From Escherichia coli (lineage in GTDB: Bacteria; Pseudomonadota; Gammaproteobacteria; Enterobacterales; Enterobacteriaceae): DNA of 64,000 nucleotides. Shown piece after piece: positions 15,001-24,566 of this stretch. The position numbers and the translations under genes were made by a program. A model generated the notes under the pieces. It did not search any database and was not told the origin of the DNA. It saw only the letters and a program-made list of their open reading frames with translations. Every line of letters starts with the position of its first letter. The stretch's first letter is position 1. The stretch is taken from the NCBI RefSeq assembly GCF_001677475.2, contig NZ_CP015229.1; one strand, given 5' to 3'.

Positions 15001-17724
15001 GACGACACTACGCCGTTGCTGAACGGCGTGCTCTCCGGCCCGCTTGCCAGCGGTGAAGTGGTTTACCTCTACCGTAACGGCCTGCTGTTAGGTGCGGTGA
15101 CGATGGTAGGCGCACTGAACTGGACCTACAGCGACAGCGGGCTGGTGAGCGGTGCCTACACCTACAGTGCGCGAGTGGTGGATCTGGCGGGGAATATCAC
15201 CTCCTCCAGTGATTTTGTCCTGACGGTCGATACCTCTATTCCAACCACGCTGGCGCAAATTACCAGCCAGACCACGCGCGATACCACGCCGATTATCAGC
15301 GGGGTGATCACGGCGGCACTCGCCAGCGGGCAGTATGTTGAAGTGGTGATCAACGGCAAAACTTACACTTCGCAGCCAGGCGGCGCGGTGGTGGTCGATC
15401 CGGCGCACAACACCTGGTATGTGCAACTGCCGGATACCGACACGCTGGCGGCGTCTGCGACCGCCTATAACGTCACCGCGCAGGTAAAAAGCTCGGCGGG
15501 CAACGGCAACACCGCCAACGTCAGCACTGGCACGGTAACGGTCAACGCGGCGATTGATTACACTCCGACCTGGACCACCGCCAGCAAATCTACCGCCTGG
15601 GGGCTGACCTACGGCCTCGACACGCACGGGATGTGGACGGTGCTGGCAAACCAGCAGGTAATGCAATCGACTGACCCACTCACCTGGTCGAAGACCGCGC
15701 TGACGCTGTATCAGAGCGGCAACAACTACGCCACCAGCTCCATCGCCGATTACGACCGTAACGGCACGGGCGATCTGTTTATCACCCGTGATGACTACGG
15801 TACAGGCTATATCAACGGCTTTACCAATAACGGCGACGGCACCTTTTCCAGCGCTATTCAGGTCACCGTCGGCACGCTGACGTGGTACGGCTCGATTGTG
15901 GCATTTGATAAAGAGGGCGACGGCTATCTCGACTTCTGGATTGGCGACGCGGGCGGGCCGGACTCTAACACCTTCTTGTGGAATAACGCAGGCACGCTGG
16001 TAGGCAACTCCACCACGTCGAACAGCGGCGGTAGCGCTACGGTGGGCGGGACGGTGACGGGGTATCTTTCGCTTAACGAAGGTTCCGGCGTCGATCTTAA
16101 TAATGACGGCAGGATTGACCTGGTTCAGCACACCTTCAACCTGAACAACTATTACACGCTGTCGTCGCTCATCAACCAGGGGAATGGCACGTTTGTCTGG
16201 GGGCAGAACACCATTAACACCTTCCTCAGCACGGCGGGCAGCGGTGGTAACTCGACGTCTGTCTCCATGACCTGGGCCGATTTCGATGGTGATGGCGATA
16301 TGGATCTCTTCCTGCCAGCCAGCCAGGGAAGAGCTAACTACGGCTCCCTGTTATTCAACACCAACGGCGTGCTGGGCAGTCCGGTGGCGGTGGGGGCTAC
16401 GGCAACCACCTACGCCAGCCAGTTTAGCGTGGCGGTGGACTGGAACCACGACGGCCTGATGGATATCGCCCGTATCGCCCAGACCGGACAATCGTATCTT
16501 TACACCAACGTTGGTGGTGCCAGCAACTGGACGCAATCAACCCTCGGCGGTAGCCAGAGCGGCACCACCAGTGGCGTGGCGGCAATGGACTACGACTGGG
16601 ACGGCGCGGTGGATGTACTGGTAACCAAACAGTCGGGCAGCGTGTTCCTGATCCGCAACACCAACACGGTGAGCTACGGCACTTCGCTGCACCTGCGCAT
16701 CACCGATCCCAACGGCATTAACGTCTATTACGGCAATACCGTGAAGCTGTACAACTCGGCGGGGGTGCTGGTCGCCACGCAAATCATTAACCCGCAGTCG
16801 GGGATGGGGGTTAACGATACCTCGGCGCTGGTCAACTTCTACGGGCTGAATGCCGGGGAAACCTACAACGCGGTGCTGATCAAATCCACCGGCACCACAG
16901 CCAGCAATATCGACCAGACGGTCAACACCAGCTGGGGCGGCTTACAGGCCACCGATGCCACCCACGCTTACGATCTCAGCGCCGAAGCGGGTACCGCGAG
17001 CAACAACGGCAAGTTCGTCGGCACCGGTTATAACGACACCTTCTTTGCCACCGCAGGCACCGATACCTACGACGGTTCCGGCGGCTGGGTGTACAGCTCC
17101 GGCACCGGAACGTGGCTTGCGAACGGCGGTATGGACGTGGTTGATTTCCGCCTCTCGACGGTGGGCGTGACCGCGAACTTAAGCAGCACCGCCGCGCAGG
17201 CTACTGGCTTTAACACCTCGACATTTACCAATATCGAAGGCATTTCCGGCTCGAATTTTAACGACACTCTGACCGGCAGCAGCGGCGATAACCAACTGGA
17301 AGGGCGCGGCGGCAACGACACCCTTAACATCGGAAACGGCGGTCACGATACCTTGCTCTATAAACTGCTCAACGCCAGTGACGCTACCGGCGGCAACGGC
17401 TCAGACGTGGTGAATGGCTTTACGGTAGGGACATGGGAAGGCACCGCCGACACCGATCGCATTGATATCCGCGAGTTGTTACAGGGCAGCGGCTACACCG
17501 GCAACGGCAAAGCCAGCTACGTCAACGGCGTGGCAACGCTGGATGCGCAGGCCGGGAACATCGGTGATTTTGTCAAAGTCACCCAGAGCGGCAGCGACAC
17601 CATCGTGCAGATCGACCGCGACGGCACGGGCGGCACTTTTGCGGCAACTAACGTGGTCACGCTGACGGGCGTGCATACCGACCTCGCCACTTTGCTGGCG
17701 AATCATCAGTTGATGGTGGTGTAG
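1..17724 (+). CDS. Giant type I-secreted Ig-like repeat adhesin (SiiE/BapA/LapA-like), 5'-partial; at least 5907 aa in window
   Basis: Frame 1 is open from base 1 to TAG at 17722-17724, so the true start is upstream. About 100-aa Ig-like repeats with recurring xDDxINAxExG motifs; C-terminal FG-GAP/VCBS-like D-x-D-G-D repeats, RTX-type glycine-rich nonapeptides (GRGGNDTLN, GNGGHDTLL) and a D-V-V-N-G-F ... D-R-I-D-I tail typical of T1SS C-terminal secretion domains; T1SS ABC and MFP genes follow immediately. Confidence 0.9.
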   Translation, partial: TTVQAGLSWSVSVPEADIQALGNGDLTVNASVTNQNGNTGSGTRDITIDANLPGLRVDTVAGDDVVNIIEHGQALVITGSSSGLAEGTPLTVTINNVEYTTAVQADGSWSVGVTAAQVSTWPAGTVNIAVSGESSAGNSVSITHPVTVDLTPAAITINTIATDDVINAAEKGANLTLSGTTTNVEPGQTVTVTFGGKNYTASVASDGSWTATVPAADLAALPEGSASAQASVSNINGNSASAVHNYSVDSSAPTIIINTVASDNIVNASEADAGVTVSGSTTAEAGQIVTVTLNSPTVQTYQATVQADGSWSINIPAADLEALTDGSHTLTATVNDKAGNPASTTHNLAVDLTVPVLTINTIAGDDIINAAEHGQALVISGSSTGGEAGDVVTVTLNSKTYTTTLDASGNWSVGVPAADVTALGSGPQTVTATVTDAAGNNDSETHTVTVNLTAPTIGINTIATDDIINATEKGLDLQITGTSNQPAGTTITVTLNGQNYTATTDAAGNWSTTVPASAVGALGEASYTVTANVTDSAGNSNSASHNVQVNTALPGVTINPVASDDIINAAESGVAQTISGQVTGAAAGDTVTVTLGGKTYTATVQGNLSWSVDVPAADIQAIGNGDLTVNASVTNGVGNTGSGSRDITIDANLPGLRVDTVAGDDVVNSIEHGQALVITGSSNGLAAGAALTVVINNVTYGATVLADGTWSVGVPATNVGNWPAGTVNITVSGATSAGNPVTITHPVTVDLAAVAISINTVSGDDVINAAEKGADLTLSGSTSGVEAGQTVTVTFGGKTYTATVAGDGSWTTSVPAADLAALRDGDATVQASVSTINGNTASATHAYSVDATAPTLAINTIATDDILNAAEAGNPLTISGSSTAEAGQTVTVTLNGVTYSGTVQADGSWSVSVPTADLSNLTASQYTVSASVNDKAGNPASTTHGLAVDLTVPVLTINTVSGDDIINAAEHGQALVISGSSTGGEAGDVITVTLNSKTYTTTLDASGNWSVGVPLSDVTALGSGPHTITAAITDAAGNSDDASRTVTVNLTAPTIGINTIATDDVINATEKGADLQITGTSNQPAGTTITVTLNGQNYTATTDASGNWNATVPASAVSALGEANYTVTANVTDTAGNSNSASHNVLVNSALPAVTINAVATDDIINDAESGNAQTISGQVTGAAAGDTVTITLGGNTYTATVQANLSWSVSVPAADIQAIGNGSLTVNASVTNVVGNTGNGSRDITIDANLPGLRVDTVAGDDVINSIEHNQALVITGSSSGLTVGTALTVVINNVTYGATVLADGTWNLGVPAADVSNWPAGTVDIMVSGTNSAGTTSTITHPVTVDLAAVAITINTLSGDDVINAVEKGETLVVSGSTSGVEAGQTVTVTFGGKNYTTTVEANGSWTVNVPPADLAALPDGAGNVQASVSNINGNNAQADRAYSVDATAPLVTINTIASDDTLNVSEAGAGITISGTTTAQAGQTLTVTLNNNTYQTTVLADGTWSVNVPASDLSGLTASSYTVTATVSDKAGNPASADHALAVDVTAPDLTINTVAGDDIINAIEHGQALVVSGTSTGAAAGDVVTVNLNGKNYTTTLDASGNWSVGIPAADVTALATGSQTITASLSDRAGNSDSTTHDVIVDLSGPTLTINTVSGDDIINNTEKTQDLTISGGSSGLATGTTVTVMLNGLAYSATTDGSGNWSITVPASAVGALGEAVYSISASATDSAGNNGSTTHTVNVESLLPGVIINTVAGDDIINAAEIVVAQTISGQVTGTAVAGNTVIVTIGGNQYTATVQPDLSWSVSVPANVLQALGNGELTISASVTNGVGNTGTATHDIVIDANLPGLRVDTVAGDDVINSIEHTQALVVTGSSTGLAAGAALTVVINSVTYGATVLADGTWSVGVPAADVTNWPAGTVNIAVSGTNTAGTTTSITHPVTVDLAAVAITINTLSTDDVINAAEKGSDLQLSGTTSDVEAGQTITVIFGGKSYTTTVATGGTWGLTIPAADLATLPDGAANVQASVSSVAGNIAQATHVYSVDATAPSVTINTIASDDILNAAEAGSALTISGTSTAEAGQTVTVTLNGVNYSGNVQADGSWSVSVPTGDLANLTASPYTVSAAVSDKAGNPASATHNLTVDLAAPVVTINTVAGDDIINATEHGQAQIISGSATGATTGNTVSVTIGTTTYTTVLDANGNWSIGVPASVISALAQGDVTITATVTDSAGNSGTASHTVTVALGAPILSINTIAVDDIINATEKGADLAISGTSDQPAGTQVTVTLNGQNYTTTADASGNWSVTVPASRVSALGEASYTVTASATDTDGNSGSASHNVQVNTALPGVTISVVATDDIINAAEAGADQTISGQVTGAAAGDTVTVTLGGATYTATVQANFSWSVNVPASALQALGNGELTISASVTNSVGNTGNGTREITIDANLPGLRVDTVAGDDVVNIIEHGQALVITGSSSDLAAGSNVTLTINGQTYVAAVLADGSWSVGVPAADVSAWPAGTVTITASGNTTAGNPVSVTHPVTVDLTAVAVSINAITADDVINAAEKGAALTLSGSTSGVEAGQGVTVTFGGKTYTASVAANGYWSTTVPAADMAALRDGDASAQASVSNVNGNSATTTHAYSVDASAPTVTINTIAGDDILNAAEAGSALTITGSSTAEAGQTVTVTLNGENYTGTVQTDGSWSVSVPPADLSALTASNYTVNAAVSDKAGNPASVNHNLTVDTSVPVVTINTVAGDDVINATEHAQAQIISGSATGAATGSAVTVTIGTNTFTTVLDASGNWSVGVPASVVSALANGTVTINASVTDAAGNSGSATHQVTVNTGLPSITFNAISGDNVLNADEKGQPLTISGSSTGLATGAQVTVTLNGHNYSATTDAAGNWTLTVPVSDLAALGQANYTVSASATSAAGNTASSQANLLVDSGLPGVTINTVAGDDIINAAEAGADQTISGVVTRAAAGDTVTVTLGGNTYTTTVQGNLSWSISVPAADLQALGNGDLTINASVTNANGNTGSGTRDITIDANLPGLRVDTVAGDDIVNSIEHGQALVITGGSSGLNAGVPLTITINGTVYSATVQADGSWSVGIPAANVSAWPAGALTIDVTGQSSAGNSVSVSHPFTVDLTAVAISINTIASDDVINAAEKGTGLTLSGSTSGIESGQTVTVTFGGKTYTASVAANGSWSVTVPAADLATLPDGAANVQASVSSASGNSASATHAYSVDASVPTLTINTIASDDILNATEAGSPLTISGTSTAETGQTVTVTLNGAIYTGTVQADGSWSVSVPTSALGALSASNYTVSATVNDKAGNPGSASHNLAVDTTAPVLTINTVAGDDIINDAEHAQALVISGTSTGGEAGDVVSVVLNGKTYTTTLDASGNWSVGVPAADVAALGSGAQTITASVSDRAGNSDDASRTVTVSLSAPVISINTIAGDDVINATEKGSDLALSGTSDQPAGTAITVTLNGQNYSATTDASGNWSVTVPASAVSALGEATYSVTASVTNAQGNSSTASHNVQVNTALPGVTINPVATDDIINAAEAGSAQTLSGQVTGAAAGSTVTVELGGKTYTATVQADLSWNVSVPASDWQALGNGELTVNASVTNAVGNTGSGTRDITIDASLPGLRVDTVAGDDVVNIIEHSQAQVITGSSSGFAAGTALTVVINNQTYAATVLANGSWSVGVPATDVSNWPAGTLNITVSGANSAGTQTSITHPLTVDLTTVAISINAITPDDVINAAEKGAALTLSGSTSGVEAGQTVTITFGGKTYTTTVAANGSWSTTVPAADLAALRDGDASAQVRVTNVNGNSATATHEYSVDSAVPTVTINTIASDNIINASEAAAGVTVSGTSTAETGQTLTVTLNGTNYQTTVQADGSWSLTLPASDLTVLANNGYTLTATVSDQAGNPGSASKGVTVDTTAPVISFNTVAGDDVINNVEHTQAQIISGTATGAVAGDRLVVTIAGQQYVTSTDASGNWSVGVPASVISGLADGTVTISATVTDSAGNSSTQTHNVQVNTAAVSLSVSTISGDNLINAAEAGSALTLSGTGTNFATGTVVTVLLNGKGYSATIQSNGSWSVNVPAADVAALADGTSYTVSASAQDSAGNSATASRSVAVDLTAPVININTVSTDDRLNAAEQQQPLTLNGSTSAEVGQTVTVTFGGKTYTATVAANGTWALNVPAADLAALGQGAQTITASVNDRAGNPGQTTHALTVDTVAPTVTIATVAGDDIINNVEQLAGQIISGTTTAEVGQTVTVTFNGQSWTATVGSGGSWSVFIPAQQFAGLSDGSYTISASVSDQAGNPGSASRGVTLNGDVPTVTINTFAGDDVVNAAEHGSSLVISGTTTAPVGQTLTLTLNGKTYTTTVQTGGSWSYTLGSADVTALADGNAYVINASVSNAIGNTGSSNHTITVDLSAPAMGINIDSLQADTGLSASDFITSVSPVVVNGSLTAALASNETAQISIDGGVTWTTLTVTGTTWRYNDSRTLTDGNYLYQVRVIDAAGNVGATDSQNVVIDTTAPDPAVKTIAISAITTDTGLITNDFVTSDTTLAVSGTLGAALSAGEFAQISIDGGTTWQNLSVSGLTWTYLDGRTLSDGNYNYQVRVIDTAGNIGATASQIVTVDTTAPLASKTIVIAGISDDTGLSSSDFVTRDTTLTVRGTLGATLAADERAQISLDGGVTWTTLTVIGTSWSYADGRTLTDGTWNYTVRVVDLAGNIGQTATQNVVVDTTSPEAAKSITITGISDDTGASSSDFITSDTTLTVRGVLGAALGANEFAQISTDNGATWVNVTVAADGLNWSYVDGRTLTNGTTTWQVRVVDLAGNVGATGSQSAQIDTVNPAQVLTIASISTDTGSSATDFITSDTTLTLTGSLGAGLASGEVAQISLDGGATWITLTTNGTQWTYTDGRTLTDGSYVYQVRVLDQAGNIGPVVSKTVVVDTINPTATPTIVSYTDDVGQRQGTLSSSQATDDTTPLLNGVLSGPLASGEVVYLYRNGLLLGAVTMVGALNWTYSDSGLVSGAYTYSARVVDLAGNITSSSDFVLTVDTSIPTTLAQITSQTTRDTTPIISGVITAALASGQYVEVVINGKTYTSQPGGAVVVDPAHNTWYVQLPDTDTLAASATAYNVTAQVKSSAGNGNTANVSTGTVTVNAAIDYTPTWTTASKSTAWGLTYGLDTHGMWTVLANQQVMQSTDPLTWSKTALTLYQSGNNYATSSIADYDRNGTGDLFITRDDYGTGYINGFTNNGDGTFSSAIQVTVGTLTWYGSIVAFDKEGDGYLDFWIGDAGGPDSNTFLWNNAGTLVGNSTTSNSGGSATVGGTVTGYLSLNEGSGVDLNNDGRIDLVQHTFNLNNYYTLSSLINQGNGTFVWGQNTINTFLSTAGSGGNSTSVSMTWADFDGDGDMDLFLPASQGRANYGSLLFNTNGVLGSPVAVGATATTYASQFSVAVDWNHDGLMDIARIAQTGQSYLYTNVGGASNWTQSTLGGSQSGTTSGVAAMDYDWDGAVDVLVTKQSGSVFLIRNTNTVSYGTSLHLRITDPNGINVYYGNTVKLYNSAGVLVATQIINPQSGMGVNDTSALVNFYGLNAGETYNAVLIKSTGTTASNIDQTVNTSWGGLQATDATHAYDLSAEAGTASNNGKFVGTGYNDTFFATAGTDTYDGSGGWVYSSGTGTWLANGGMDVVDFRLSTVGVTANLSSTAAQATGFNTSTFTNIEGISGSNFNDTLTGSSGDNQLEGRGGNDTLNIGNGGHDTLLYKLLNASDATGGNGSDVVNGFTVGTWEGTADTDRIDIRELLQGSGYTGNGKASYVNGVATLDAQAGNIGDFVKVTQSGSDTIVQIDRDGTGGTFAATNVVTLTGVHTDLATLLANHQLMVV
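16..12600 (+). repeat. Tandem ~1.8 kb super-repeats (six Ig-like domains per unit) inside the adhesin gene, about 7 units in window
   Basis: The motif GLSWSVSVP...IQALGNG...LPGLRVDTVAGDDVVN recurs at nt ~19, 1820, 3614, 5414, 7208, 9003 and 10798 with high but imperfect nucleotide identity. Confidence 0.85.
13320..14900 (+). repeat. Second repeat class in the adhesin: ~105-aa domains (DTGxSxSDFxTSD...AQISxDGGxTW...YQVRVxDxAGN), 5 canonical copies plus 2 divergent ones up to ~15300
   Basis: Copies start near 13330, 13640, 13965, 14285 and 14600, period ~320 bp. Confidence 0.8.
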
Positions 17725-17727
17725 AGA

Positions 17728-19890
17728 ATGAAAAAAAATGCCCAGTCCGTGGAAGCCTGGCTGGAGGCGATGATCGCCGTGGCGCGTTATTACCGCCTTG
17801 ATTTTTCTCAGGAGAACGTGCGCGCAACCGTCAACTGGGAGCGCGACAGTAAGCGGGAAGAGTTGCTCACCGATATGGCGCGGCAACTGGGAATGGGGTT
17901 ACGGCTGGTGGAGTTTTCCGCCGATTCGCTTAACCCGTGGCGACTGCCGTTGATCGCCGTGTTTGATAATCAGCAGATTGGCGTGATCACCCGCCGCGAT
18001 AACCACGACAATATCAGCGTTCAGTTCAGCGGTGACGAAGGGCTGGAAACCACGCTTAACGTCGCGGATATTGAAGATAAAATCGTCGAACTGGCGCTAC
18101 TGCGCCCGCTCAGCGCCATCCCCGACGCGCGCGTGGATGACTATATTCGCCCGTATCAGGCGAACTGGTTCTGGAATCTGTCGCTGAAAGACTGGCGGCG
18201 CTATGGCGACATTATGCTGGCCTCGCTGGTGGCGAACGTGCTGGCGCTGGCGGCGATGATTTTCTCGATGCAGGTTTACGACCGCGTCGTTCCGGCGCAG
18301 TCGTACCCGACGCTATGGGTGCTGTTCGCCGGGGTGATGATGGCGATCCTGTTTGAGTTCTGTATGCGCATGGTGCGCACGCACCTTTCCGATGTGATCG
18401 GCAAGCGGGCGGATCTGCGCATTTCGGATCGCGTTTTTGGTCATGCGCTACGGCTGAAAAACAACGTGCGATCGAAATCCACCGGATCGTTTATCTCGCA
18501 GATCCGCGAGCTGGAATCGGTGCGGGAGCTTATTACTTCCACCACCATCGGCGCGGTGGCGGATCTGCCGTTCTTCCTGCTGTTTGTCTTTATTTTGTGG
18601 ATGATCGGCGGCTGGCTGGTGCTGGTTGTTTTGCTGGCGCTGCCGTTATTAGTGATCCCCGGCCTGCTGGTGCAACGCCCGCTGGCGCGGCTGGCGAACG
18701 AAGGAATGCGTGAGTCGGCGGTACGTAACGCGACGCTGGTGGAAGCCGTGCAGTCGATTGAAGACATTAAACTGCTGCGCGCTGAACAGCGTTTTCAGAA
18801 TCAGTGGAATCACACTAACGACGTGGCCTCGTCCATCAGCATGAAGCAACGTTTTCTCACCGGGCTACTGCTCACCTGGACCCAGGAAGTGCAATCCATC
18901 GTCTACGTGGTGGTGCTGTTGGTGGGCTGCTTTATGGTGATGAACGGCGACATGACCACCGGTGCGCTGGTCGGGACGACGATCCTGGCTTCGCGCACCA
19001 TCGCGCCGCTGTCGCAGATATCCGGCGTGCTCTCGCGCTGGCAGCAGGCGAAAGTGGCGCGTAACGGCCTCGATGAACTGATGAAGCGCCCGGTGGATCA
19101 ACCGGAACACGGCAAACTGGTGCATAAAGCAGTGCTGCACGGCAATTATCAGTTCAGCAACGCGGTGTTTTATTACGACGAAGAAGAGAAGATTGCCGAT
19201 GTGGCGATTGGCAAACTTAACATTCAGGCGGGTGAGAAAATCGCCATTCTTGGGCGCAACGGCGCGGGTAAATCGACGCTACTGCAAATGCTCGCCGGAA
19301 TGCGTATCGCCCAGCAGGGGCAGGTGCTGCTGGATAACATCAGCATCGGGCAGCTTGATCCGGCGGATCTGCGCCGCGACATGGGGCTGCTCAGCCAGAC
19401 CGGGCGACTGTTCTTCGGTTCGCTGCGGGAAAACCTCACTATGGGGATGCCGGAAGCCAGCGATGAAGATATCGAACGCGCATTAATCCTCAGCGGGGCG
19501 CTGCCCTTTGTGCAGAAGCAGAAAAACGGCCTCAACTACATGATTCAGGAAGGGGGATTTGGTCTTTCTGGCGGTCAGCGGCAAACGCTGCTGCTGGCGC
19601 GGCTACTTATCTCTCAACCCAATATCGTGCTGCTCGATGAACCCAGCGCCTCGCTGGATGAAATGGCAGAAGCGTATTTAATTGAACAACTAAAACAATG
19701 GGTTGGGCATCGCACGCTGGTCATCGCTACTCACCGCACGGCGATGCTGCAACTGGTGGACAGGATCATCGTGATGGATCAGGGGCGGATTGTGATGGAT
19801 GGCGCGAAAGAGGCCATTTTGCGTGAACAGGGCGAACCCACGACGCGACGGGTGGTGTTGCAGGAGAAGAATAAGGGGTCTGCCGCATGA
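17728..19890 (+). CDS. Type I secretion system ABC transporter, HlyB/LapB-like (ATPase plus permease, N-terminal C39-like domain)
   Basis: 720 aa; Walker A GRNGAGKST, ABC signature LSGGQRQ, Walker B LLDEPSASLD, hydrophobic TM segments in the middle. ATG lies 3 nt after the adhesin stop. Confidence 0.9.
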   Translation: MKKNAQSVEAWLEAMIAVARYYRLDFSQENVRATVNWERDSKREELLTDMARQLGMGLRLVEFSADSLNPWRLPLIAVFDNQQIGVITRRDNHDNISVQFSGDEGLETTLNVADIEDKIVELALLRPLSAIPDARVDDYIRPYQANWFWNLSLKDWRRYGDIMLASLVANVLALAAMIFSMQVYDRVVPAQSYPTLWVLFAGVMMAILFEFCMRMVRTHLSDVIGKRADLRISDRVFGHALRLKNNVRSKSTGSFISQIRELESVRELITSTTIGAVADLPFFLLFVFILWMIGGWLVLVVLLALPLLVIPGLLVQRPLARLANEGMRESAVRNATLVEAVQSIEDIKLLRAEQRFQNQWNHTNDVASSISMKQRFLTGLLLTWTQEVQSIVYVVVLLVGCFMVMNGDMTTGALVGTTILASRTIAPLSQISGVLSRWQQAKVARNGLDELMKRPVDQPEHGKLVHKAVLHGNYQFSNAVFYYDEEEKIADVAIGKLNIQAGEKIAILGRNGAGKSTLLQMLAGMRIAQQGQVLLDNISIGQLDPADLRRDMGLLSQTGRLFFGSLRENLTMGMPEASDEDIERALILSGALPFVQKQKNGLNYMIQEGGFGLSGGQRQTLLLARLLISQPNIVLLDEPSASLDEMAEAYLIEQLKQWVGHRTLVIATHRTAMLQLVDRIIVMDQGRIVMDGAKEAILREQGEPTTRRVVLQEKNKGSAA

Positions 19891-21062
19891 ATGGACAACT
19901 GCAATACAACCGTGGCCTGACTGAACCCCGCCTGCCGCGTTCGGCGCTGGCGGTACGCGTTACCGCTGTGATGCTGCTCTGTTTTCTCGGCTGGGCGTGG
20001 TACTTCCAGCTTGATGAAGTCACCACCGGCAGCGGCACGGTAGAACCTTCCGGGCGCGAACAGGTGGTGCAGTCGCTGGAAGGCGGAATTCTGTATCATC
20101 TCGACGTCAAGGTTGGCGATATTGTTGAACAGGGCCAGCCGCTGGCGCAGCTTAACCGCACCAAAACGGAATCCGACGTCCAGGAAGCAATGTCGCGGCT
20201 GTACGCGGCGCTGGCAACCTCGGCGCGGCTGCGGGCGGAAGTGAGTAATAAACCGCTGGTCTTCCCTGACGAACTGAATAAATTCCCCGAACTTATCGAG
20301 TCGGAAACGGCGTTGTACAACACTCGCCGCGATGGGCTGAACAAAGCCACCACCGGGCTGACGCAGGGGATTAGCCTGGTCAACCGCGAACTGGCGATGA
20401 CCCAGCCGCTGGTAAAACAGGGGGCGGCGAGCAGCGTCGAAGTGCTGCGCCTGCAACGCCAGGCCAATGAACTGGAAAACAAACTTAGCGACGTACGTAC
20501 GCAATATTACGTTCAGGCGCGCGAAGAGTTAGCGAAAGCCAATGCGGAAGTGGAAACCCAGCGTTCGGTGATCCGTGGACGGGAAGACTCCCTCACCAGG
20601 CTCAACTTTACTGCGCCAGTTCGTGGCATTGTTCAGGATATTGATGTCACCACAGTTGGCGGCGTCATTGCCCCCGGTGGTAAACTGATGACCATCGTGC
20701 CGCTGGATGAGCAACTGCTGATTGAGGCAAAAATCTCCCCGCGCGATGTGGCGTTTATCCATCCGGGGCAAAAATCGCTGGTGAAAATAACCGCTTACGA
20801 TTACTCCATTTATGGCGGTCTGCCGGGAGAAGTGGCGGTGATTTCACCAGATACCGTGCAGGATGAAGTGCGGCGCGATGTTTATTACTATCGGGTGTAC
20901 ATTCGCACTTTCAGCAACCATCTGGAAAACAAAAGCAAACAGCAGTTTCCGATATTTCCCGGTATGGTGGCGACGGTCGATATCCGCACCGGCAAAAAGA
21001 GCGTGCTGGATTATCTGTTGAAACCCTTTAATAAAGCACAGGAGGCGTTGCGCGAACGATGA
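19887..21062 (+). CDS. Type I secretion membrane fusion protein (HlyD family periplasmic adaptor)
   Basis: 391 aa; N-terminal TM segment, long coiled-coil region, C-terminal beta domain; 4-bp ATGA overlap with the ABC gene stop. Confidence 0.85.
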
Positions 21063-21466
21063 ACATTAGCGATGTAGCAAAAATTACCGGCCTGACCAGC
21101 AAAGCAATCCGCTTCTATGAAGAGAAGGGGCTGGTGACGCCGCCGATGCGCAGCGAAAATGGTTATCGCACCTACACGCAGCAGCATCTCAACGAACTGA
21201 CCTTACTGCGCCAGGCGCGCCAGGTGGGCTTTAACCTGGAAGAGAGCGGCGAACTGGTGAATCTGTTTAACGACCCGCAGCGCCACAGTGCTGATGTAAA
21301 ACGGCGCACGCTGGAGAAGGTGGCGGAGATCGAGCGACATATCGAAGAACTGCAATCCATGCGCAACCAGCTGTTGGCGCTGGCGAATGCCTGCCCTGGC
21401 GATGACAGCGCCGACTGCCCGATTATCGAAAATCTCTCCGGCTGCTGTCATCATCGGGCGGGGTGA
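21059..21466 (+). CDS. cueR: Copper-responsive MerR-family regulator CueR
   Basis: 135 aa; N-terminal MerR HTH ([25 protein letters not shown]) and C-terminal CxxxxxxxxC metal site ([10 protein letters not shown]); matches E. coli CueR as I recall it. ATG overlaps the HlyD-like stop (ATGA). Confidence 0.93.
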
Positions 21467-21469
21467 AAA

Positions 21470-21673
21470 TCAGTTAATCCCCGTTTGCACCGAAAGAATA
21501 TGCTGCAAACTTTCTACCATTATGCGCCCCGATTGAAATAAGCCTTCCTGGATTTCATTGTTAACATTCACAGCGTGAACCAGGGAGGCTAATAACACCA
21601 CTTGCAAGAAGGCAAAAATAAACGCACCGATAATCATAATATGCGTCAGGGGGATTTTCCTTTGCTCCTTCAT
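21470..21673 (-). CDS. Small hydrophobic membrane protein (67 aa), hypothetical
   Basis: One predicted TM helix (IMIIGAFIFAFLQVVLLASLV); start overlaps the upstream lipoprotein gene stop (ATGA); stop lies 3 nt from the convergent cueR stop. Confidence 0.45.
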   Translation of the reverse strand: MKEQRKIPLTHIMIIGAFIFAFLQVVLLASLVHAVNVNNEIQEGLFQSGRIMVESLQHILSVQTGIN

Positions 21674-22092
21674 TTTAAATAACCCACAAACTGACCTTCC
21701 TTCATTAAGGCGACTTTTCCCGTGTGGTGATAAACAATGACGTTATAAAGACCTGACTGATAAACAGTGGCATCTTTATTGTCTTCATCAATTGCACATA
21801 ATGAATCATTGAGATAAGCAAAGTTCTTACTGCTCATTCTAAAGGTCATGCCAAATCCTTTATAAATGGCTTTCTTTGCCGCCTGGGCATGTTGTGCGGC
21901 TTCTGCATTTTTAAATGCCTGCGCCTCGGATGCACTTAAAATAGCCGTCTGACGCTGTTGTTCTGCGAGATAACAGGTGTCATGGCTGACGCCCTGCGCC
22001 TGGCAATCTGCGATGCGGGAAGTGGGTGAACTACAGCCAGCCAGTAATATAACCGCCAGCAGGGAAAACGATTTAATGGAACTATTCATCAT
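21670..22092 (-). CDS. Putative lipoprotein (140 aa), hypothetical
   Basis: Signal peptide with lipobox LLAGC; co-directional with and downstream of the YadA-anchor gene. Confidence 0.6.
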   Translation of the reverse strand: MMNSSIKSFSLLAVILLAGCSSPTSRIADCQAQGVSHDTCYLAEQQRQTAILSASEAQAFKNAEAAQHAQAAKKAIYKGFGMTFRMSSKNFAYLNDSLCAIDEDNKDATVYQSGLYNVIVYHHTGKVALMKEGQFVGYLK

Positions 22093-22177
22093 TGTTAACC
22101 TTAAATAATGTACAAATTAATGAAGAGGTGAAACCCGGCAAGCTTCCTTGCTCTTATTTATATTGAGGATTGGAATA

Positions 22178-23194
22178 TTAGAAAGAATATCCCACGCCGA
22201 CACCCGCGCCGAAATCAGATTGCGTATCCGCAGAGACACCGGCTTTAATCACGGTATGCGTTCCGGCATTAAAAGATGTTCCTACAGACACCGCAGATTC
22301 ACCGTTGAACGTTCCCGCTCCCGCTGACACCATCATCAAGTCACCGGTTTTCACCTGTGGTTGTGAGGCGATAGCGATGGCAGATGCAGTTCCCGCATTG
22401 GCTTCTTTACGATTGTCCTCAACTTCGTTTTTCAGAGAATCGAAATGGTTATTGAGCGTGTTAATTTGTTGGCTGTTATCTGCGACCCGTTTTTGCGTGT
22501 TGGTTAACTGTTGCTGCGTTTGTGCGGAATCTTGTCTCAGACTTTCAATTTGCTCATGTGCCTGGACAGACTTCTGCGCCAGACTTTGCATTTGTTTATC
22601 GTATTGAGCCCTTTCTTTTTGCTGTTGTGCTGCCACATCGGTTGTCAGTGCATTCATTTTCTGCCCTTGTTCCGTGGTAGTGCGCTGAATAGCCTCATTT
22701 TGAGCCGCCAGTCTGGCATTAATCATCTCCTGATAATGCGCAGTATTTTGCGTATCTCCAGTCGCGGCGAGCGTTTTTTGTGTGGCTACGATCTGCGCCT
22801 GTTGCTCTGTAATTTGCGTTTGCTGGGCATCAGTTACCGCAGACTGTCGGGCGTTGATCATGCTCTGATAACGGGCTGGTGTCTGTGCATCACCTGTAGC
22901 GGCAACGGTTTTTTGTCCTGCGTCAGGATCTGTCTGGACAGTGGGAGTCTGAGTGGTATCAGGTGTTTCAGAAGGGATGTAGTGATGTTCAGTCAAATAG
23001 GTATACGCAGCGGGGCTGTTGTCTGTGCGTTCTAAAAAGCGGGTAATCTTCTGCTCAATCTCCGATTGCGACATGCCAGAGTTAATGGCTGAAAGCTCTG
23101 TTGCCGCCGCTTCAATGGTATCACCAGCTAAAACAACAGGGCTGGATGTTGCTGAAATTATGAGTGCCAGTAAAGCTACGTTTACAGTTTTCAT
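22178..23194 (-). CDS. Short trimeric-autotransporter-like protein with YadA-type C-terminal membrane anchor and Q-rich coiled-coil stalk, no recognisable head domain
   Basis: 338 aa; N-terminal signal peptide; last ~75 aa (AGTASAIAIASQPQVKTGDLMMVSAGAGTFNGESAVSVGTSFNAGTHTVIKAGVSADTQSDFGAGVGVGYSF) fit the YadA anchor pattern (G/A-rich entry helix, four beta strands, terminal aromatic); internal ~45-aa duplication in the stalk. Confidence 0.7.
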   Translation of the reverse strand: MKTVNVALLALIISATSSPVVLAGDTIEAAATELSAINSGMSQSEIEQKITRFLERTDNSPAAYTYLTEHHYIPSETPDTTQTPTVQTDPDAGQKTVAATGDAQTPARYQSMINARQSAVTDAQQTQITEQQAQIVATQKTLAATGDTQNTAHYQEMINARLAAQNEAIQRTTTEQGQKMNALTTDVAAQQQKERAQYDKQMQSLAQKSVQAHEQIESLRQDSAQTQQQLTNTQKRVADNSQQINTLNNHFDSLKNEVEDNRKEANAGTASAIAIASQPQVKTGDLMMVSAGAGTFNGESAVSVGTSFNAGTHTVIKAGVSADTQSDFGAGVGVGYSF

Positions 23195-23357
23195 TCATTT
23201 TCTCTTGTTCAAAATAAGTCGCACTAATGTTTCTATAAGAAACAAATAATATTATTTTAAGAAATAAACTACGTTGCAATTTAATCGAAATTTACGCCGC
23301 CATTTGTGTGATGTAAAGCGCATTTTTGTCTGGTGTAAGCGTAAACACCATCAATAA

Positions 23358-23382
23358 GAAACAAAAATGGTTTCTTATATAA
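23358..23382. promoter_or_regulatory. Perfect inverted repeat ATAAGAAAC-N7-GTTTCTTAT in the divergent promoter region; candidate operator
   Basis: Read directly from sequence; a partial copy TAAGAAACAAA occurs near 23236. Confidence 0.35.
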
Positions 23383-23560
23383 ATAAAAAAGGAAATCATT
23401 TCGTGCTCTTTCAATGTAAAAAAGAGTAAAGGCTTGTTTTGATAAGCGAAATAAATTCTGTTTCTGGACTAAACGTGAACCGGTTCCTGATGTGTGTTAA
23501 AATGCGTTTCTTTGATAAATCTCAATTTTTAAGAGGTTTACGCCAGGCAGGAAAATTTAA

Positions 23561-23923
23561 ATGAATGAATTTGAGAAGATTTTTAATGAAATGAATCTGG
23601 ACCGGGCATTGCTACCGATCCTTTTTCGTTCGAACCGGTCAACAGTGTGGAAATATTTAAGTGGCGATAGTACGGCTCCTGCCTCAGCTATGTCACTGAT
23701 TATGCTGTTGCAGTTAATCCAGAAACGAAACCCCGATCTGTTAGCCGAATGGTTAACGCTTTCTGATTTCACCATTCCGCCAGAAGTTTACCTGGACCAG
23801 CCTGATTACTGGAAAGGGTGGGTGTATACGCAACACAAGGTCAATAAAAACGTCCTGGAATATCTAAAAAAACATTATCCGGATGAAGACCAAAAAAACA
23901 TGAATAAAGGTAGTGACGAGTAA
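23561..23923 (+). CDS. Hypothetical protein (120 aa), possible small DNA-binding regulator
   Basis: ORF divergent from the YadA-anchor gene across a 366-bp AT-rich spacer; no confident family assignment from sequence alone. Confidence 0.4.
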   Translation: MNEFEKIFNEMNLDRALLPILFRSNRSTVWKYLSGDSTAPASAMSLIMLLQLIQKRNPDLLAEWLTLSDFTIPPEVYLDQPDYWKGWVYTQHKVNKNVLEYLKKHYPDEDQKNMNKGSDE

Positions 23924-23949
23924 TTTGCCAATGCCAGTTAATATAGCGG

Positions 23950-24107
<158 letters not shown>

Positions 24108-24115
<8 letters not shown>

Positions 24116-24566
24116 TGACCGCACGGATGATCAGCGTTATCCCTTCTATCGCAATTACTTCAACATGCGTACCTGCGCCGAGATCCTCGCTGGCGCTGAC
24201 AGGCCATGAACTGTCGCCGACGCGCATATGACCGCGCCCGTTGACCAGTGGAGATTCCAGCACAAAACGTCGGCCAATCAGCTGCTGCCCGCGCTGGTTT
24301 AAATGACTATCGCTGTGCTTTTGTTCGCGCACCCGCCGCGACAACCATTTCCACCACAGCCAGGCGGCGAGCAGCGTCAGGATGGCAAACATCACCCCTT
24401 GCCACTCCCAACCCAGCGGCACCAGCCAGACCACCAGGCCGGTAATCACCGCTGCCACGCCGCTCCAGAACAAATAACCATTTCCGCCCAACATCTCGGC
24501 TGCCAGCAGCAACCCGCCGAGACTGAGCCAGAAAATATGTGGATGAACGACCATTAACTCCATCAT
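24108..24566 (-). CDS. ybbJ: NfeD-family inner membrane protein
   Basis: 152 aa, hydrophobic N-terminal half; 4-bp overlap with the upstream SPFH-domain gene; conserved K-12 synteny. Confidence 0.85.

Follow-up and report, generated by a model that had tools for sequence, protein, structure and literature searches.

Giant repetitive adhesins are encoded together with a dedicated ABC transporter, an adaptor and a TolC-like protein in Salmonella SPI-4 (siiABCDEF) and bapABCD, and in the Pseudomonas lapA/lapBCE system. We know of no giant-adhesin cluster of the SPI-4, bap or lap type that ends in a metal-sensor gene. O island 28 (OI-28) of enterohemorrhagic Escherichia coli O157:H7 comprises tolC28, rtxA28/rtxB28, hlyB28, and hlyD28 (Z0608-Z0635; ecs0540-ecs0544), and is activated by RstA and Ca2+ (PMC12758282). 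In Salmonella, copA and cueR form a divergent pair (2006 comparative study, PMC1526738). Here we examined the junction between an OI-28-type secretion cluster and the copper regulator gene cueR in a stretch of 64,000 nucleotides from E. coli (contig NZ_CP015229.1, assembly GCF_001677475.2; hereafter the window, with positions counted from its first letter). In the window, cueR begins inside the stop codon of the adaptor gene. Genome alignments show that most E. coli, K-12 included, carry the product of one ~25.8-kb deletion, which left a 96-bp fossil of the adaptor gene that keeps both the junction and the cueR leader.

The adaptor open reading frame (ORF; 19887..21062, + strand, 391 aa) closes with CGA TGA, its stop codon TGA occupying 21060-21062. 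The cueR ORF (21059..21466, + strand, 135 aa) begins at 21059 with an ATG made of the final A of CGA and the TG of TGA, and start and stop codon overlap in the ATGA at 21059..21062 (+ strand). The letters at window positions 21035-21074 read GCACAGGAGGCGTTGCGCGAACGATGAACATTAGCGATGT, and those of the adaptor-cueR junction ...GAACGATGAAC. The two genes lie on one strand, with the start of the second over the stop of the first and neither terminator nor promoter between them. Coordinates and letters confirm the overlap of the cueR start with the stop of a type I secretion gene, as described in an earlier sequence-only reading of this DNA, and the identities given there to the two genes held as well, both proteins scoring above the family-model cut-offs. 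The first, the hlyD28 counterpart, belongs to the HlyD family of type I secretion periplasmic adaptors (membrane-fusion proteins) and matched TIGR01843 to its final residue (327.7 bits vs a cut-off of 208.65). The second is a Cu(I)-responsive MerR-family regulator that matched NF007590 (308 bits vs 244) and TIGR02044 (206.6 bits vs 147.4), with residues 1-135 aligned end to end on positions 1-135 of the NF007590 profile. Its translation contains both Cys112 and Cys120 (...LALANAC(112)PGDDSADC(120)PII...), which we take to be the two Cu(I)-ligand cysteines, at the same positions as in E. coli CueR.

ATGA overlaps are frequent, and any ATG followed by A shuts one upstream reading frame, so the overlap could be a product of chance or of annotation, with the true cueR start elsewhere. 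We consider this extremely improbable, since CueR fits the equivalog model from residue 1, the outgroup cueR genes use the same start codon, and the adaptor attains the full-length C-terminus of its family exactly at the overlapping stop. The annotated start is correct because cueR of Klebsiella and Pseudescherichia opens at the same ATGAA(T/C)ATTAGCGA. The junction is also annotated in E. coli MEI003, O157:H7 E32511, Ec-U14-1, and 366_BP0076.

The 4-nt overlap motif by itself is commonplace: the junction of the ABC transporter gene with the adaptor gene (19887-19890) is likewise ATGA, and at least five further same-strand ORF pairs within the window overlap by 4 nt. What stands above chance is the pairing of the adaptor with cueR, not the ATGA motif. 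To place this pairing, we assembled 80 adaptor homologues with a readable end, three from Escherichia and 77 from other genera (Enterobacter, Cedecea, Lelliottia, Rahnella, Acinetobacter, and others), and sought cueR within 4 kb of each. All 80 stop right after a conserved ...EALRER, the 77 from other genera being 56-73% identical and aligned to the last residue. A cueR gene starting within the adaptor stop codon was found only in the three Escherichia, and none of the 77 homologues from other genera had cueR within 4 kb; directly 3' of the adaptor, the closest non-Escherichia homologues carry a GC terminator hairpin, not cueR. Adjacency of the two genes was seen in Escherichia sp. E1V33, E. 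whittamii, and E. coli, plus a contig that is probably Escherichia (L095), whose adaptor is 92% identical and ends ...GCGCGAACGATGAACATTA. In the E. coli representative SCPM-O-B-8794 (L006), which lay outside the end-readable set, cueR is directly downstream of the adaptor too. Among these sequences, the adjacency is specific to Escherichia.

Two further observations concern the adaptor 3' end. In SCPM-O-B-8794, the tblastn match to the adaptor halts at residue 374 (~5068-5121) with cueR at the expected place, which suggests a small lesion near the adaptor 3' end. In Pseudocitrobacter (L096, L098; 6173-6176), an 84-85% identical adhesin/ABC/adaptor cassette is present at another locus, where the adaptor stop overlaps the stop of a convergent cho gene (TTAA). 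The neighbors of that cassette are cho, ymgB-like genes, and a BLUF-EAL gene, and the right edge of the cassette coincides with the adaptor stop codon at two unrelated loci, in Escherichia and in Pseudocitrobacter.

To survey the junction within E. coli, a 1-kb query centered on it was compared by megablast with 5426 complete genomes. The query matched 5424 of them, with its adaptor half covered in only 959. In the other genomes, including those of the K-12 type, the match opens at query position 404, which corresponds to window position 20963, 96 bp ahead of the cueR ATG. The retained stretch (20963..21058, + strand) consists of the last 96 bp of the adaptor gene (codons 360-391); it forms the ybaT-cueR spacer of K-12-type genomes and is the cueR leader in both genome types. 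In K-12-type genomes, the Prokaryotic Genome Annotation Pipeline annotates this copy as a pseudogene ("frameshifted; incomplete; missing N-terminus") ending 4 nt inside cueR, likewise in UTI89 and EA7, and the curated MG1655 record has no feature in the spacer. A tblastn search recovered adaptor residues 369-391 in the K-12-type spacer. In alignments, K-12, UTI89, EA7, and GCA_016586575 share the breakpoint, a 1-bp deletion, and the same substitutions. A K-12 query spanning the junction was covered over at least 80% of its length in 4458 of the 5426 genomes, from several lineages including K-12, UTI89, ST131, and O111:H8, and intact island genes were found in about 960, O157:H7 among these.

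The left end of the deletion could be read from E. coli MEI003, an island-bearing genome with the layout ybaT, a 10-bp GC hairpin with a U-rich tail, a TolC-family gene, siiEA, the ABC transporter gene, the adaptor gene, and cueR. In MEI003 coordinates, the deletion measures ~25.8 kb, with one end in the loop of the hairpin that terminates ybaT and the other at adaptor codon 359. The intact hairpin after ybaT is significantly stable in MEI003 (-16.4 kcal/mol, z = -4.83); K-12-type genomes have the left breakpoint inside its loop and lack the 3' arm and U-tract, and no significant structure remains there (z = +0.63). Long direct repeats were not found at the breakpoints, where microhomology is at most 2-4 nt (GTA/TAT).

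Because its 96 bp encode the family-conserved adaptor C-terminus, the K-12 spacer is a remnant of the adaptor gene, and the island-free state therefore arose by deletion. The premise that K-12 displays the uninserted ybaT-cueR junction does not survive, as the K-12-type remnant is frameshifted and still overlaps cueR in ATGA. The "native" cueR leader of K-12 itself derives from the secretion gene. A recent arrival of the island at the cueR start, limited to particular strains and starting from a K-12-like ancestor, would agree with the presence of the island in only about 960 of the 5426 genomes and with the description of OI-28 as acquired (PMC12758282). We regard it as very unlikely, given the frameshifted last 96 bp of the adaptor gene, encoding the conserved C-terminus, in K-12-type genomes; the truncated ybaT terminator, which together with the fossil is a deletion signature and not an empty site; and the sharing of this junction by E. 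whittamii, Escherichia sp. E1V33, and a lineage with an adaptor of only 92% identity.

The origin of the junction, as distinct from its later loss in most E. coli, was approached through other genera. In Pseudescherichia and Klebsiella, the gene order is copA (-), ~100 bp, cueR (+), nfeD/ybbJ (-), and qmcA (-), and the CueR box and the copA -35 end about 9 nt ahead of the cueR ATG (Klebsiella letters ...TTAAACCTTCCAGCAAGGGGAAGGTCAAGGGGGAAAG followed by ATGAATATTAGCGAT). On the copA side, homology with E. coli halts right after ...GGAAGGTCAAG; next to copA, E. coli retains ...AAACCTTCCAGCAAGGGGAAGGTCAAG, beyond which its sequence is that of the region upstream of glsA. On the cueR side, E. coli homology to Klebsiella begins at the cueR ATG. 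Taken together, the two breakpoints mean that everything from the glsA upstream region through the last sense codon of the adaptor therefore occupies the former ~9-nt gap. The CueR box ACCTTCCAGCAAGGGGAAGGT adjoins copA in the island-bearing MEI003; the copA gene of the window would be left of the window. Such comparisons show the ancestral enterobacterial layout, in which copA and cueR diverge and only a few bases separate the CueR operator from the cueR ATG. In Escherichia, the glsA-ybaT block and the secretion island then came to stand between the copA -35 and that ATG; cueR lost its own ribosome-binding and promoter region, and the last codons of the adaptor (AGGAGG...GAACG) became its leader. 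cueR is without its native 5' region because glsA-ybaT and the island separate the operator from the ATG. Junction age was judged from an Escherichia sample consisting of E. coli, E. whittamii, Escherichia sp. E1V33, and L095.

The sequence-only reading had offered two alternatives, that cueR is partly co-transcribed with the secretion genes or that the island inserted precisely at the cueR start and displaced its native promoter. The homology breakpoints against Klebsiella bear out the precise position and the displaced promoter; however, the event is old and Escherichia-wide, and K-12 carries its scar. Nor are the two alternatives exclusive, each being partly true.

We then considered how cueR is translated from its borrowed leader. 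A Shine-Dalgarno-like AGGAGG (21040..21045, + strand) lies 13 nt ahead of the cueR ATG and is supplied by the adaptor codons CAG GAG GCG (Q-E-A). Ten Escherichia sequences, drawn from both genome types, do not differ in the 35 nt ahead of the ATG; in an eleventh, L095, AGGAGG is kept and the 35 nt contain one change (GCA to GCT). The preceding ~75 nt have nine variable sites among island-bearing sequences. Folding detected no stable structure that would hide the cueR start codon (z = 0.29), and in none of the window, K-12, and Klebsiella was such masking significant. cueR translation probably initiates from the conserved AGGAGG, and termination-reinitiation at AUGA may add to it. Coupling of adaptor and cueR would not be essential, because the same leader serves cueR behind the untranslatable K-12 fossil; translational coupling is thus possible but would not be required for CueR synthesis.

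As for transcription, any complete adaptor transcript holds the cueR start, because there is no space for a terminator between the genes. A promoter scan gave no sigma-70-like site above its threshold on the + strand at 19800-21800. In a second, rough scan with a crude position weight matrix (PWM), the best score in the adaptor gene (7.85) was below the median best score of shuffles (8.98). With neither room for a terminator nor a promoter-like site above chance, cueR mRNA in island-bearing genomes would most likely be read through from the secretion operon; expression there would come mainly from this read-through or from weak internal starts. In O157:H7, the five island genes respond jointly to RstA and Ca2+ via a region upstream of the TolC-like gene, and the study reporting this has no mention of cueR (PMC12758282). 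The OI-28 cluster is also described as PhoB-regulated in a passage of PMC3978041 that cites Yoshida 2010.

In K-12, a start for cueR has been mapped. A 5'-triphosphate-enriched transcription start site (TSS) map of MG1655 lists one cueR start at NC_000913.2:512,925 with 31 reads (Kim et al. 2012, PMC3415461), which we placed at NC_000913.3:513,701, a position within ybaT that lies 292 nt ahead of the cueR ATG. The earlier reading had set a start site mapped in the 3' end of the upstream gene against read-through into cueR; in K-12 there is such a start, with ybaT as the upstream gene. Because the deletion destroyed the ybaT terminator, a promoter inside ybaT could read through the fossil into cueR in K-12-type genomes; in island-bearing genomes, the intact terminator and the 26 kb of island would block this route. 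No usable entry for a cueR start was found in the published supplements of SMRT-Cappable-seq, Cappable-seq, and Conway 2014, the RegulonDB paper has nothing on cueR, and the portion covered of the Klebsiella TSS table of Kim 2012 lists no cueR start.

A dedicated cueR promoter in the adaptor 3' end, in or just upstream of the retained 96 bp, would make the overlap a relic with little read-through. The K-12-type deletion kept exactly this 96-bp stretch, the proximal 35 nt are invariant, a -10-like TTTAAT is present at 21027-21032, and in K-12-type fossils three fossil-specific substitutions give TTCGCA-17-TTGAAT. Against these observations stand the outcome of the two promoter scans, the polymorphism of TTTAAT with TTTAAC, island-bearing genomes included, and the K-12 TSS table, in which the cueR start is at -292 and the spacer has none; ribosome-binding function, moreover, explains the conservation of the last 35 nt equally well. 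We therefore hold a dedicated promoter of this kind to be unlikely, and read-through from the upstream operon remains our preferred explanation for island-bearing genomes.

Several promoter-related observations were made along the way. The fossil substitutions (L001 2521-2549, corresponding to window 20983-21012) change ATCCGC to ATTCGC and CTGGATTAT to CTTGAATAT; the resulting promoter-like TTCGCA-17-TTGAAT is found in every deletion-type sequence examined, ~40 nt ahead of the cueR start codon, its score is not above chance, and the one TSS table (Kim 2012) has no start there. An antisense promoter-like ATGACA-18-GATAAT is found in the cueR 3' end (window 21451-21422, - strand), as a consensus match only (10 of 12 positions), and is kept in the K-12 type (L001 2988-2959). 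A sigma-54 chromatin immunoprecipitation sequencing peak with a strong motif, CTGGCACTGGTTTTGCT, lies in sense orientation inside K-12 ybaT, 679 nt upstream of cueR (PMC4591121, Table 2, IS02).

Some considerations weigh against the account given here. For island-bearing strains, we infer both the read-through into cueR and the lack of an internal promoter from the sequence, and a weak promoter missed by consensus scans could exist in the last few hundred bases of the adaptor gene. A 26-kb operon is an awkward supply for a housekeeping sensor. The K-12 start is tied to cueR by position only, from one TSS dataset. The junction could have arisen by a single composite insertion, by successive insertions, or by an insertion that a deletion later trimmed. 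On balance, we judge the account as a whole, with an old junction, a later deletion, and cueR expression by read-through, to be likely.

The overlap as such is visible in every RefSeq annotation of island-bearing strains and is not a new datum. In the literature searched, none of three points was found stated: the origin of the K-12 ybaT-cueR spacer as a fossil of the last island gene, the loss of the island in one shared deletion that took the ybaT terminator with it, and the derivation of the cueR leader from adaptor codons. All three add new detail to types of event already known, namely the fusion of operons through a 4-nt overlap and the scar left by the deletion of an island, and involve no new mechanism. 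They do lead to a rereading of a much-used K-12 reference locus, whose ybaT-cueR spacer is the fossil 3' end of a type I secretion gene, and to the view that the OI-28-free state of most E. coli is a loss and not an ancestral empty site. They also explain why the cueR gene of E. coli, in contrast to its orthologues in Salmonella and Klebsiella, no longer lies in the copA control region. On the practical side, the cueR leader is lost or changed whenever OI-28, or the gene at its end, is deleted.

One hypothesis is that cueR expression may depend on one upstream operon in strains with the island and on another in those without it. A more far-reaching proposal, which we put forward tentatively and regard as somewhat doubtful, is that island gain and loss rewired the input to cueR, which would be driven by the RstA/Ca2+- and PhoB-activated operon in OI-28-positive Escherichia vs a promoter internal to the acid-resistance gene ybaT in the K-12-type majority. 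If this were true, copper homeostasis would be set differently in the two genome types, and engineered deletions of OI-28 or hlyD28 would have unrecognized polar effects on cueR.

The remaining genes of the cluster lie to the left of the adaptor. A giant repetitive adhesin gene, SiiEA/BapA-related and the counterpart of rtxA28/rtxB28 of OI-28, occupies 7..17724 (+ strand) as an ORF of 5905 aa that continues past the left end of the window; its GC content is 0.609, and its homologue is labeled "BapA-related adhesin SiiEA" in E. coli MEI003, Ec-U14-1, and O157:H7. Three nucleotides past its stop begins the gene for a type I secretion ABC permease/ATPase, the hlyB28 counterpart (17728..19890, + strand; TIGR03375, 834.9 bits vs a cut-off of 693.1). 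The TolC-like gene would sit left of the window, and in MEI003 is found upstream of siiEA. cueR is, physically, the final cistron of an OI-28-type operon consisting of the TolC-like gene, giant adhesin, ABC transporter, adaptor, and cueR. The window adaptor protein is 100% identical to those of MEI003 and Escherichia sp. E1V33, and the O157:H7 copy has the same protein accession; core genes of the window are ~97-98% identical to K-12. By these values the window, although filed under E. coli, probably stems from another Escherichia species, close to E1V33. In a protein collection clustered at 90% identity, CueR (135 aa) and the HlyD-family adaptor (391 aa) fell into one cluster with the adaptor as representative, probably chained by mis-called fused or extended ORFs over the ATGA, such as a 200-aa CueR-containing protein (P0001); the named members of the CueR protein cluster are all labeled E. 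coli.

cueR itself is diverse at the nucleotide level, differing by 2-6% over its first 324 nt (window, L002, L005, L089-L094) with ~99% identical protein, and the flanking glsA and ybaT differ by only 2-3%. A split of cueR into two haplotypes by island presence, suspected from identities of 94.9% vs 98.3%, was rejected, as differences were 2-6% and mosaic in all comparisons; K-12 and UTI89, both deletion-type, show 18 differences, also mosaic. The mosaic diversity suggests frequent recombination around cueR.

On the 3' side of cueR lies a second variable segment (21467..24107), which is AT-rich (GC content 0.439), with K-12 homology resuming at window position 24117. Its ORFs, which have weak family matches only, comprise three on the minus strand (67, 140, and 338 aa, the 338-aa one encoding a YadA-type adhesin) and one on the + strand (120 aa). 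K-12 lacks the segment and has ybbJ directly next to cueR; O157:H7, MEI003, and Ec-U14-1 possess it, and part of it appears to be retained in some island-free B2 strains. cueR is, in this arrangement, a small core gene flanked by two variable segments.

Compared with the known systems, the window is closest in layout to OI-28. Gene order, chromosomal position, and the 4-nt adaptor/cueR overlap are alike in O157:H7 E32511, where siiEA (a pseudogene), the ABC transporter, HlyD, cueR, two small ORFs, the YadA-type adhesin, and ybbJ follow one another as in window 7..24566. The adhesin is an uninterrupted ORF of more than 5905 aa in the window and is broken in O157:H7. The OI-28 study (PMC12758282) treats the island as acquired, whereas here the island-free state is read as a loss. 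SPI-4 differs from the window cluster in its gene order. The K-12 ybaT-cueR spacer (124 bp) shares 95 of its 124 bases with the adaptor gene 3' end and closes in the same ATGA as the window; it differs in being noncoding, with a 1-bp deletion and a missing N-terminus, and in having its start site inside ybaT. The divergent pairs of Salmonella, Klebsiella, and Pseudescherichia have in common with the Escherichia locus an orthologous cueR followed by the same ybbJ (nfeD) and qmcA, and the same CueR box is kept beside E. coli copA. In those genera, the cueR leader and promoter lie within the copA control region, whereas in Escherichia ~28 kb stands between the operator and the cueR ATG (~2.6 kb in the K-12 type), and the native ribosome-binding stretch of the outgroup cueR, GGGGGAAAG, is in Escherichia replaced by codons of the adaptor gene.

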